Part shown: in pieces, positions 47,537 to 61,051 of the stretch
Numbering within the stretch: the stretch's first letter is position 1
Layout: the number at the start of each line of letters is the position of its first letter
NCBI GenBank assembly: GCA_031409275.1
Contig: JANNXA010000051.1
Span: 128,001 to 192,000 of the forward strand
DNA length: 64,000 nt
Direction of reading: 5' to 3'
Source of the DNA: Planctomycetota bacterium
GTDB taxonomy: Bacteria; Planctomycetota; B15-G4; SIAN01
Notes under the pieces: generated by a model
Database searches by the model: none
Seen by the model: the letters and a program-made list of their open reading frames with translations, nothing else
What the model was told of the DNA's origin: nothing
Made by a program: the position numbers and the translations under genes

Positions 47537-49291
47537 TTGGAACCGAGCGCCTCCCCACACCTCGTCGACCCGGATGCCGGTCAACTGCTGGCGTCCGAAC
47601 GCACGCTGCTCGATCGGCTGGCGGCCGTCGCGGCCGAGGTCGACCCGCGCGGCGCCGACGAAGAGACGGCGCGCATGCTCCGCGCCCACCTCGAGGAGCG
47701 ATTCCTCCTGGTCGTCGTCGGCGAGGTGAAGGCGGGCAAGTCGAGCTTCCTGAACGCGCTGCTCGGTCGCGATCTATGCGCGGTCGGCCCGACCCCGCTC
47801 ACCGATCGCATCTGCGTCCTCCAATGGGGAGCGACGCCCGCCGAGCGAGTGGTGGAAGAGTTCCTGGTCGAGCGCGACGTCGACGCCGAACTGCTGCGCG
47901 AGGTTTCGCTGGTCGACACCCCCGGCACCAACTCGATCCTGCGCCAGCACTCGACGCTGACCGAGCGTTTCATCCCGCGCGCCGACCTCGTGCTCTTCCT
48001 GACTTCGATCGATCGGCCCTACAGCGAGTCGGAGAACCACTTCCTGGCCTTGATCGCCGATCGTTGGCGCAAGAAGGTGGTGTTCCTGCTCACCAAGATC
48101 GACGGTCGCGATGCCACGGACATCGACGCCGTCGTCGCGTGGATCCGACGAAGCGTGCTCGAACATCACGGATTCGAGCCGATCGTCCTCCCCATTTCGG
48201 CGCGGCTCGAACAGCAAGGGCGCGACGGCGGGCTGCGCGCGGTACGCGAGTTCGTCCGCTCGACGCTGGCGGCGGGCGAGAAGATGAAGCTCAAGCTCGA
48301 GAGCCCGGCGCGCACGGCGCAGGCGTTGATCGAGTCCTTGCGCGCCACGCTCGAATCGCGTTCCGCGACGCTCGATCACGACTTCCGAGCGGTGCAGGAT
48401 CTTGAGGCGCAGGTCGAGCAGGCGGTCCTCGACCTGAAGGAGCGCAGCCACCGCTTCCTCACCGAGATGAACGAACTGTTCGTCGCATGCGAAGGGCGCG
48501 CCGAGGAGTTCTTCGACCGCCACGCTCGCCTCAAGGCGCTCGCGTTCGGCAAAGGCGAGGCCCCCCTGCGCGATCGATTCGAGCGCGAGGTCCTGGCGGA
48601 ACTCGACGCGAAGTACCGCGATGCAAGCCAGCGGGCGACCGACTGGATCACGCGCGAGGAGGTCGCGCTCTACGAGCGAAGCACGCGTTTCGTCCACGAG
48701 CGACTCGCGCAACTCGATCAGAGTCGGACGCTGCGCAACGAACCGGCGCGCTTCGAGTACCGCCGCGACCAGCTCTTCTCCGGGATCGCCGAAGCGTTCA
48801 AAGCGGAGACGCTCGCGCTCGATCTGCCGGGTGAATCGCGCCGCTTCCTGGAGAGCGCGGAGAGCGGCATGAAGCATCAGCTCGCACTCACCGGCGGCGC
48901 GGTGGTGGTAGGCGCCGGCAGCCTCGCGCTACTGACGAAGCTCTCCTCGCTCTGGTGGAACGCGGCCGGGTTGCTGCTCGCGCTCGGGCTCGGGTTGACC
49001 GGACTCGCGGTGCTTCCGGCGGTGCGGCGTCGCGCGGTCCGTCAGTTCCGCACGCGCCTCCAGGCCCTGCGCGAGCAGGTGCAGGCTGGTTATCTGCGAG
49101 CCATCGGCGACGAGATCGACGGCGCTCGCGACCGGCTCCGGCGCGCGTGGGAGCCGTTCCTGCTGTTCCATCGATCGGAAGCGAGCAGCGCCGAACTGCG
49201 CCGACGCGAACTCGTCGAACTGGCGCGTGGATTCGCAGAACTGCGCGCAGCGGTGACTCGCATCGGAAGCGGGCGCGTCAGCGATCACTGA
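47537..49291 (+). CDS. Bacterial dynamin-like GTPase
   Basis: G1 GEVKAGKS, G2 PTPLT, G3 DTPG, G4 TKID; helical stalk; paired TM helices near the C-terminus. Confidence 0.88.
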   Translation: MEPSASPHLVDPDAGQLLASERTLLDRLAAVAAEVDPRGADEETARMLRAHLEERFLLVVVGEVKAGKSSFLNALLGRDLCAVGPTPLTDRICVLQWGATPAERVVEEFLVERDVDAELLREVSLVDTPGTNSILRQHSTLTERFIPRADLVLFLTSIDRPYSESENHFLALIADRWRKKVVFLLTKIDGRDATDIDAVVAWIRRSVLEHHGFEPIVLPISARLEQQGRDGGLRAVREFVRSTLAAGEKMKLKLESPARTAQALIESLRATLESRSATLDHDFRAVQDLEAQVEQAVLDLKERSHRFLTEMNELFVACEGRAEEFFDRHARLKALAFGKGEAPLRDRFEREVLAELDAKYRDASQRATDWITREEVALYERSTRFVHERLAQLDQSRTLRNEPARFEYRRDQLFSGIAEAFKAETLALDLPGESRRFLESAESGMKHQLALTGGAVVVGAGSLALLTKLSSLWWNAAGLLLALGLGLTGLAVLPAVRRRAVRQFRTRLQALREQVQAGYLRAIGDEIDGARDRLRRAWEPFLLFHRSEASSAELRRRELVELARGFAELRAAVTRIGSGRVSDH

Positions 49292-51027: not shown

Positions 51028-51130
51028 AACGAAAGCGGGCGGATGACTCGTCTCCGAGTCACCCGCCCGATCGACCGCGAACCGCAGCGAACCGTCGCTC
51101 AGAACGAACAACGATCGCGGCGCAGGCGCA

Positions 51131-51640
51131 TCACTTCTTCAGCTGGTAGAGCCCGCGTCCGGCCTTCTTCACGTCGCTCATCTCGCTCAGACGCTGACCG
51201 ACGATCACGGCGAACTTCGAGCTACCGGTCTGGTAGCCAGCCTCGATCACCTTTGCAGCGACATCCGCGAGCTTGACTGGCTCGCTCGAGCCCGCAAGCA
51301 CGGTTCGAATCATGTTCTGGAGCCCGCCCTCGCCGCGCGGACCGCGCTTGCCCTTGCGGCCGCCACGCTTCGCGGGCACTGCAGCCGCACTCGGAGCGCC
51401 GACGGCGCTGACGACTTTCCGCGGACGCCCCGGACCACGCTTCACGCCCAAGCGGAGCGCCCGTCCATCGCCCATCGAAGCGGCAATCGCCGAATCGATG
51501 GTGTCGAGGGTCGACTGAATTTCGGCTCGTCTCGCCTGTAGCGCCTCGACTTCAGCAGCCTTCTCGTCAAACAGTCGCTTCAGGTCAGCGAGCGAAAACC
51601 CCGTGTTGGCACTCGGCACGCTCTTCTTGCGACGACCCAT
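51131..51640 (-). CDS. Putative nucleoid-associated DNA-binding protein (coiled coil + AT-hook + winged helix)
   Basis: AGGAG RBS; N-terminal heptads; KRGPGRPRK; basic linker KRGGRKGKRGPR; C-terminal LQNMIRTVL..S.EPV...DVA.KV...GY...GRGLYQL. Confidence 0.65.
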   Translation of the reverse strand: MGRRKKSVPSANTGFSLADLKRLFDEKAAEVEALQARRAEIQSTLDTIDSAIAASMGDGRALRLGVKRGPGRPRKVVSAVGAPSAAAVPAKRGGRKGKRGPRGEGGLQNMIRTVLAGSSEPVKLADVAAKVIEAGYQTGSSKFAVIVGQRLSEMSDVKKAGRGLYQLKK

Positions 51641-51817
51641 TCATTTCTCCTGGCCCCTGGTTTGATTGCGCCGAGCCTGCGAATGACCACCCGTGCGCGA
51701 ATCGCGCCGACCGGGTCGCTTCACAGAACCGACTACCGCGCATAGGCAAAGCGCGCCACCACTCACTCGACACACATCACGAGAATGGTGGTACATACGA
51801 TCCACATACGGCCATGA

Positions 51818-51826
51818 AGTATAGCA
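51818..51826 (-). promoter_or_regulatory. Extended -10 promoter element upstream of the putative NAP gene
   Basis: Minus strand TGCTATACT (TGnTATAAT-like) in a locally AT-richer stretch. Confidence 0.5.
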
Positions 51827-52278
51827 TCCGGATCACCCCAGAAATACAGCTGCGATCAAACGCGGCCAATATGCCCGCATCGATCGGGAGCTCATGACTG
51901 CTCCGCGGAATGTCGTTCGCCGCCGATTCCACGTGATTGTGGCGCGTGTGAACGCACTCGGGCTCGGTTGGCGGGCTGGGCGTTGATGTCGGGTTCATGG
52001 CAACCGACAACTCCACCGGAACCGCACATCGACCGAAGTGAAGCAGAGCCGCCGGCGTCCTATCACGCACCCCCGCAAAAATGCGGCGCTGCACCGCGCT
52101 GGATTGTCCACCCGATTGCGCGACTGATTCACGCCCCCTGCTGAGTTTCGGCCCTGCGACTCCGCACTGCGCCTCGAACAGGAGCTTCATCCCCTGGGTG
52201 CTGGGGACCGACATCGTCGGAATGGCGTCCGACTCCGATCCAAAACCGCATCCCGTGCCGCGACGCAGGGAACGTGAA

Positions 52279-55837: not shown

Positions 55838-55949
55838 GCCCGGCAACAACCTACTTTCTCGGAGTGACCCAATATCATCGGCGCTAGCTGCTTAACTTCC
55901 GTGTTCGAGAAGGGAACGGGTGTATCCAGCCAGCTATGGTCACCGGGCA
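55838..55949 (-). rRNA. rrf: 5S rRNA
   Basis: Minus strand GCCCGGTGACCATAG...CACCCGTTCCC..CTCGAACACGGAAGTTAAG...GAAAGTAGG..GTTGCCGGGC; ends approximate. Confidence 0.95.
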
Positions 55950-56042
55950 TTTTGTGATTTTAGTAAAAACCTAGTAGCACAAGGATCGATGTCCAATTCA
56001 TTGGACCATGACCGCCCCGCATCGCGGGGCGATAGAAAAGCG

Positions 56043-59044
<3,002 letters not shown>

Positions 59045-59162
59045 CACTTTTCTTTAATTTTAGCGCGCTCGAGTTTCGCATTTCATTCATGCGCTTCTTT
59101 CGACAGACAAACTGAGTCTTAGTTTGATACTTGTGCCACTAGGTTTTCAAAGAACGTAAAAA

Positions 59163-59238
59163 TGGTGGAGGCGACAGGATTCGAACCCGCGACCCCCAGC
59201 TTGCAAAGCTGGTGCTCTACCAACTGAGCTACACCCCC
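59163..59238 (-). tRNA. tRNA-Ala(TGC)
   Basis: GGGGGTGTAGCTCAGTTGGTAGAGC...TTGCAA...TTCGAATC...CGCCTCCACCA; G3:U70 pair present. Confidence 0.97.
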
Positions 59239-59305
59239 ATTCGAAGGCGCAAAGCAGGGAGCCGCGGTCGACGATGCCCGGTTGGACGAACCAGGATGCA
59301 CCCGA

Positions 59306-59382
59306 TGGTGCACCCGAGTGGATTCGAACCACTTACCTCGCGCTTATCAGGCGCGTGCTCAAACCAGCTGAGCTACGGGTGC
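59306..59382 (-). tRNA. tRNA-Ile(GAT)
   Basis: GCACCCGTAGCTCAGCTGG...CTGATAA...GGTTCGAATCC.CTCGGGTGCACCA. Confidence 0.96.
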
Positions 59383-59504
59383 GGGCATGCAGACATCTCA
59401 GCAGACAAGCTGCCGAGAAAAAGGACAGAGAGGCCTGACCGATGAGTACTGGTCGACAGTGCTTGCATCGCCGAAGCGATGCAGCCAAGGTGTTACATCC
59501 TTAG

Positions 59505-61051
<1,547 letters not shown>

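Follow-up and report, generated by a model that had tools for sequence, protein, structure and literature searches.

The window analysed here, a stretch of 64,000 nucleotides from a planctomycete genome, carries on its reverse strand a gene (51131..51640) for a 169-residue protein, P0001, composed of a predicted coiled coil, a basic linker and a winged helix. By profile comparison, P0001 belongs to a large undescribed Rok-like planctomycete family, and a dimeric DNA-bridging nucleoid protein is the most likely assignment. P0001 likely has a part in organising the chromosome and, like Rok of Bacillus, may act to silence foreign genes. With slightly more confidence than doubt, we favour a nucleoid protein that bridges DNA in the manner of Rok and acts as a repressor.

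Architecture of P0001 and likeness to Rok

The open reading frame at 51131-51640 encodes the very basic protein with all the motifs that a first-pass annotation of this DNA had quoted, and its net charge of +18 lies at the 98th percentile of the 1,073 called proteins of 100-250 residues in the genome. A first search with P0001 returned 56 hits including the query, 52 of which were aligned (alignment A1) after three fragments and one spurious hit had been dropped. From A1, AlphaFold predicts two folded parts, both with predicted local distance difference test (pLDDT) values above 90. The first is a single long helix, residues 17-57 (51470..51592, reverse strand; pLDDT about 96, net charge -3), the predicted dimerisation domain. 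In a second alignment (A2) of 130 relatives, made of 25 members of A1 and 105 of 144 new hits with a single winged helix and 128-200 residues, hydrophobic residues are kept at positions 17, 20, 24, 31, 34, 41, 45, 48, 52 and 55. Residues 17 to 55 form an unbroken heptad pattern whose core positions 27 and 38 carry conserved basic residues, in agreement with the heptad region noted in the first pass. R38 is invariant in A1 and D/E49 is conserved; R38-D49 was also the top long-range pair in a covariation analysis of 263-304 sequences. Several covarying pairs sum to 81-89, which is the pattern of an antiparallel dimer, yet 10% of permutations reach the same antiparallel band.

The second folded part, residues 104-169 (51134..51331, reverse strand), is modelled as three helices and a two-strand wing, with the family signature GY.[TS].S..F..IV...L and the wing motif K..RG.Y. 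Fold searches returned winged helices only, and the AlphaFold and Foldseek check of the C-terminal winged helix came out in its favour. When residues 101-169 were modelled from the single sequence, the result was of low quality, with a pLDDT of 71 and no strands, and it was set aside. The two parts are joined by a disordered linker rich in K, R, G, P and A, residues 58-103 (51332..51469, reverse strand; pLDDT 44-51, net charge about +13). Across A2 the coil has a median net charge of -1, the linker one of +14 and the winged helix one of +6. Sequence searches of the PDB with P0001 found generic coiled coils only, and a search of NCBIfam found no match.

The modelled order of coil, linker and winged helix supports the oligomerisation-linker-DNA-binding layout proposed earlier. 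Together with the conserved heptad, it gives P0001 the predicted domain order of the H-NS-like functional class, i.e. an N-terminal multimerisation domain, a flexible linker and, at the C terminus, a domain that binds DNA (PMC11841835). Further criteria for that class are an at least dimeric state, DNA-DNA bridging, a minor-groove preference for AT/TpA and global repression (PMC11841835).

The likeness to Rok is seen in reciprocal searches. A profile-profile alignment (hhalign) of the family C-terminal domain with nine plasmid Rok homologues gave a probability of 88% (E 2.9e-6, 59 columns), with Rok N154 at family position 142. With the Rok profile, P0001 came first among 47,261 open reading frames of the genome, weakly (E 8), and its paralogues came third, fourth and twelfth. 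In the reverse direction, all nine Rok proteins were placed by the family profile at ranks 5-24, directly behind the four paralogues. At E≤0.1 the Pfam model WH_Rok (PF23159) matched 42 of the 52 close relatives, the lowest E value being 6e-6; P0001 itself scored below its cut-off (12 bits vs 27.6), and precomputed PF23159 matches are found on only three listed relatives. Rok (5ZUZ) was the top PDB match of P0001 in Foldseek (E 0.014), and in a wide structural search Rok was not among the best 50 matches, which are those listed.

In Rok, N154, K171 and R174 are invariant and T156 is conserved (PMC6212790). The two wing contacts are present in P0001, where K159 corresponds to K171 and R162 to R174, and within the family the equivalents of R174, K171 (as K or R), N154 and T156 are found in 125, 111, 60 and 7 of 130 members, respectively. 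A comparison of the N-terminal helices by hhalign gave a probability of 7% (E 0.005). A coil motif, R..[LIV]...L..[LIV][DE], which was picked after both sets had been seen, occurs in 80 of 130 family members, in 9 of 9 Rok proteins and in 103 of 3,836 genome proteins. For Rok itself, AlphaFold predicts dimerisation by residues 1-47 (PMC9757077). With profile matches that are reciprocal, if weak, and the wing K/R residues kept, these comparisons favour the likeness to Rok that had been suggested.

The family shares with Rok of B. subtilis and sRok of pLS20 (PDB 5ZUZ/5ZUX) an N-terminal dimerising helix (predicted here), a linker and a C-terminal winged helix in the same order, as well as the wing K/R contacts, a similar R..h...L..hD coil motif and the occurrence of both chromosomal and mobile copies. 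It differs in coming from another phylum and a host of 69% GC, Rok being reported mainly from Bacillus (PMC6212790), and in having an extra segment, GY.[TS].S, that precedes helix 3, and forms with two winged helices. The linkers differ as well: they carry +1 to +5 in the nine plasmid Rok proteins, and that of B. subtilis Rok is called neutral (PMC9757077), whereas the family linker is strongly basic and contains GRP motifs. Rok itself fails to complement E. coli hns, which makes the complementation check proposed in the first pass a weak one.

One such motif in P0001, KRGPGRPRK (residues 67-75; 51416..51442, reverse strand), had been described as AT-hook-like. This description stands in part. 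The tripeptide GRP is found in 79 of 130 family linkers, up to four times per linker, compared with a mean of 22.5 and a maximum of 37 in 500 shuffles, and by this measure it is present beyond chance and selected for. As in the HMGA AT-hook, the GRP core is flanked by K/R in a disordered region. However, the core in P0001 is the non-canonical PGRP, in which the first Arg, the residue inserted into the minor groove, is missing; the HMGA core is RGRP and that of Lsr2 and H-NS is R/QGR (PMC8476142). The Pfam model AT_hook (PF02178) does not match P0001 and matches only one of 130 relatives, and a canonical AT-hook protein was rejected as an assignment. In favour of more than chance, too, 2 of the 3,836 proteins called in the genome contain RGPGRP. 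Because 51 of 130 linkers have no GRP and only 31 have a true RGRP, we consider the motif, on the alignment, an accessory basic candidate for minor-groove binding and not a defining feature of the family. The first-pass idea that the protein combines the AT-hook and winged-helix modes of DNA binding is not upheld by these data.

H-NS, Lsr2 and MvaT resemble the family in having a multimerisation domain, a flexible linker and a DNA-binding domain, and homologues on mobile elements; H-NS-like proteins also have an acidic N terminus and a basic linker and C terminus (PMC9757077). From this charge layout one would predict that bridging by the family protein responds to salt and Mg2+ in the way of H-NS and unlike Rok. 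They differ in that their Q/RGR hook is part of the folded domain, in contrast to the optional GRP in a disordered linker. P0001 does not match the domains in Pfam by which H-NS and Lsr2 bind DNA (PF00816, PF23359), and a homologue of either protein was rejected as an assignment. The genome, which is 93% complete, has no match to H-NS or Lsr2 (MvaT and MucR were not searched for) and one to HU. HARE-HTH (PF05066) has the same winged-helix subtype, and 37 of 130 members match it at E≤0.01; P0001 has no match, and the paralogue on contig C10 reaches 18.4 bits vs a cut-off of 25.9. Unlike HARE-HTH proteins, P0001 is a standalone protein that has a coiled coil and lacks an enzyme domain. Sso10a/Sac10a of Sulfolobus are dimers in which a coiled coil links the winged helices; these archaeal proteins have the reverse domain order compared with P0001, and no long basic linker.

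The family and its mobile copies

The A1 profile retrieved 1,359 clusters (50% identity) at E≤1e-10 and 3,066 at E≤0.001; the top 150 were examined, and part of the weak tail may stem from low-complexity linkers. Where source names are shown, all relatives are called 'hypothetical protein', and where a label is given it is Planctomycetota, Phycisphaerae or Phycisphaerales, as expected for the uncharacterised planctomycete protein that had been proposed. The nearest Atlas clusters are unnamed and mostly from Planctomycetota, with one mostly from Verrucomicrobiota, and the nearest named record, 70% identical to P0001, is titled Planctomycetota bacterium. About 19 of the 144 new hits have two tandem winged helices behind the coiled coil (a crude pattern flags 20, at least one wrongly); they include P0068, P0072, P0081, P0088, P0106, P0154 and P0183.

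Family matches were found in 17 of 31 related genomes. Across the phylum they were found in at least 86 of 401 genomes, a lower bound given that nine candidates were scored per genome, with up to nine matches per genome. The distribution is patchy, with 0 of 33 and 0 of 30 genomes in some taxonomic families. Searches of the open full-text literature returned no paper whose listing describes the family; subscription papers and supplements could list members. The string 'Planctomyce' is absent from the main text of PMC8476142 and PMC11894785.

The genome encodes four family copies. The window copy is the syntenic core-genome copy; the others are 33-41% identical to it, and two of them are on prophage-like elements. 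The copy on contig C55 is upstream of genes for a DNA methylase, terminase gpA, DUF2924 and a serine recombinase, and that on C15 adjoins a methylase 95% identical to the one of the C55 element. Three related prophage-like elements were recognised (G000:C55, about 38-51 kb and 72-84 kb, and G000:C15), all with a DNA methylase; terminase gpA and a serine recombinase are present in both C55 elements, and the family gene in two of the three elements. The third, C55:72-84 kb, has the methylase and no family match. No tRNA genes were found in the stretches fetched around the two copies on prophage-like elements. A lower-GC stretch located just upstream of the C55 copy contains a type II secretion-like cluster (L024, 8135-19063, forward strand) with secretin, ATPase, F, G and pilin-sized open reading frames.

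In a genus-mate, a family gene (locus L028, G004:C19) lies within an island with integrase, DNA methylase, restriction and bacteriophage exclusion (BREX) genes (BrxA, BrxB, BrxC-like). Tandem family copies occur in L030, L032 and L033. One of three scans of viral contigs found a member, on a 61-kb contig, the other two found none, and annotated plasmids and phages gave no family match. In a 46-row tree without Rok, the three prophage and island copies group in a single supported clade that excludes the window copy, and the copy from the viral contig branches elsewhere; the mobile copies are not one group (2 changes). Silencers are carried by mobile elements in other bacteria, e.g. sRok on pLS20 and CgpS on a prophage (PMC7074111), and by analogy the mobile paralogues fit this pattern.

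Scored against 29 genes for ribosomal proteins and elongation factors, the codon usage of the window gene ranks at the 99th percentile among 1,440 called genes whose products have 100-300 residues, and at the 96th among 95 genes matched for GC at third codon positions. Gene calling was crude and seems to have overlooked the window gene, which was scored by its coordinates. The prophage copies are at percentiles 74 and 68, and HU is at 53. Codon usage like that of ribosomal-protein genes is suggestive of high expression.

Proposed function and competing explanations

The analysis shows the gene, its family, the copy number and genomic context and, by prediction, the domain layout; for P0001 we infer dimerisation, DNA binding, bridging, abundance, AT preference and silencing, as follows. 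The N-terminal helix is predicted to dimerise the protein, and its winged helices, tethered in this way, would take hold of two segments of DNA and form a bridge, with help from the basic linker. Wing residues K159 and R162 likely contact the backbone and the minor groove, like K171 and R174 of Rok. The K/R/GRP linker likely raises the affinity for DNA, either non-specifically or in the minor groove, like the basic N-terminal tail of Rok. The chromosome would be compacted by an abundant bridger of this type, and acquired DNA that is relatively rich in AT would probably have its genes repressed; paralogues on mobile elements may pair with the core copy. Indirect support for such a silencer comes from the multiple copies, the paralogues on prophage-like elements, the codon usage resembling that of ribosomal-protein genes and the lack of an H-NS or Lsr2 match in the genome.

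Several observations weigh against this proposal. Going by the models, structure alone does not single out Rok, and HARE-HTH is about as close. Silencing in particular is called into question by the base-reading residues, which differ from those of Rok (the N154 position is K and the T156 position A in P0001), and by a genome with little AT-rich DNA. These last points would suit a sequence-indifferent architectural protein similar to linker histones or Sso10a, which dimerises, coats or bridges DNA and compacts it with no AT preference and no silencing. We consider this explanation rather unlikely: GRP cores are enriched beyond composition, and copies on prophage-like elements, in a defence island and on a viral contig, together with the patchy distribution and variable copy number, appear to fit silencers better.

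The shared winged-helix subtype also brings in a HARE-HTH-type reader or regulator, which would read modified DNA or a specific site, or dock on RNA polymerase like its delta subunit, with the mobile copies regulating the methylases of their elements. The delta subunit has an acidic tail, in place of which the family has a basic linker. Moreover, the 52 closest relatives match WH_Rok more often than HARE-HTH (42 vs 9), no methylase is near the core copy and one methylase-bearing prophage-like element has no family gene; we therefore regard such a role as improbable. Top structural matches that include Z-alpha-like domains and ribosome-associated winged helices, and the position of the gene near hflX and an rRNA operon, would agree with a protein that binds RNA, the ribosome or Z-DNA and is not a chromatin protein, to which we give very little credence.

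Beyond a Rok-like bridging protein with a repressive role, the family could tentatively represent a further major class of silencers or bridgers: a remote relative of Rok in more than 1,000 planctomycete clusters, with a Rok-type winged helix, an H-NS-like charge layout and AT-hooks in the linker, which may polymerise via two pairing sites on one helix and be hijacked by prophages. This extension we hold to be doubtful. If true, the Rok architecture would be ancient and widespread and not an oddity of Bacillus, and many planctomycetes would gain a missing silencer.

No xenogeneic silencer of Planctomycetota was found in the literature searched, and a 2012 study of the condensed Gemmata nucleoid could offer HU alone as a candidate organiser (PMC3440768). 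The family is unlikely to account for nucleoid condensation across the whole phylum because matches were found in 86 of the 401 sampled genomes, a lower bound. It does provide a concrete and easily expressed candidate with which to test whether Rok-type bridging is widespread, and would show how a silencer separates foreign from self DNA in a genome of 69% GC.

The gene and its surroundings in the window

The gene for P0001 is real because it has a ribosome-binding site, a terminator, a conserved family and synteny, which together rule out a spurious open reading frame. A Shine-Dalgarno-like AGGAG (51647..51651, reverse strand) is located 6 nucleotides 5' of the start codon, and a similar GGAGG precedes the orthologue in locus L029. 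An intrinsic-terminator-like hairpin of 15 pairs, 11 of them G-C, with a T-rich tail (51036..51069, reverse strand) is located 60 bases 3' of the gene, between it and a convergent CoA-binding gene. The other flanking gene is hflX. The orthologue has the same neighbours in L005 and L029, and two of them in L010.

Upstream of the gene, a patch with 52-53% GC vs 69% genome-wide (51750..51899, strand undefined) is a possible promoter or autoregulatory site. No match to the sigma-70 consensus was found upstream of the gene. An alignment of five loci, one of them in the wrong orientation, showed no DNA motif conserved upstream.

Elsewhere in the window, a complete rRNA operon (16S-tRNA-tRNA-23S-5S) is found at 55838-61051 on the reverse strand, and a 584-residue GTPase of the bacterial dynamin-like type is encoded at 47537-49291 on the forward strand; it matches Pfam Dynamin_N (E 3.6e-25), and L005 and L029 share its synteny. 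Finally, a gene 1.45 kb away from that of P0001 (49476-49682, forward strand) encodes a small basic protein of 68 residues with weak matches to histone folds (DUF1931, E 0.007; CBFD_NFYB_HMF, E 0.06), which is probably a bacterial histone. A genus-mate has a syntenic counterpart with 92% identity, and the codon usage of the window gene for this small protein is at the 99.7th percentile.
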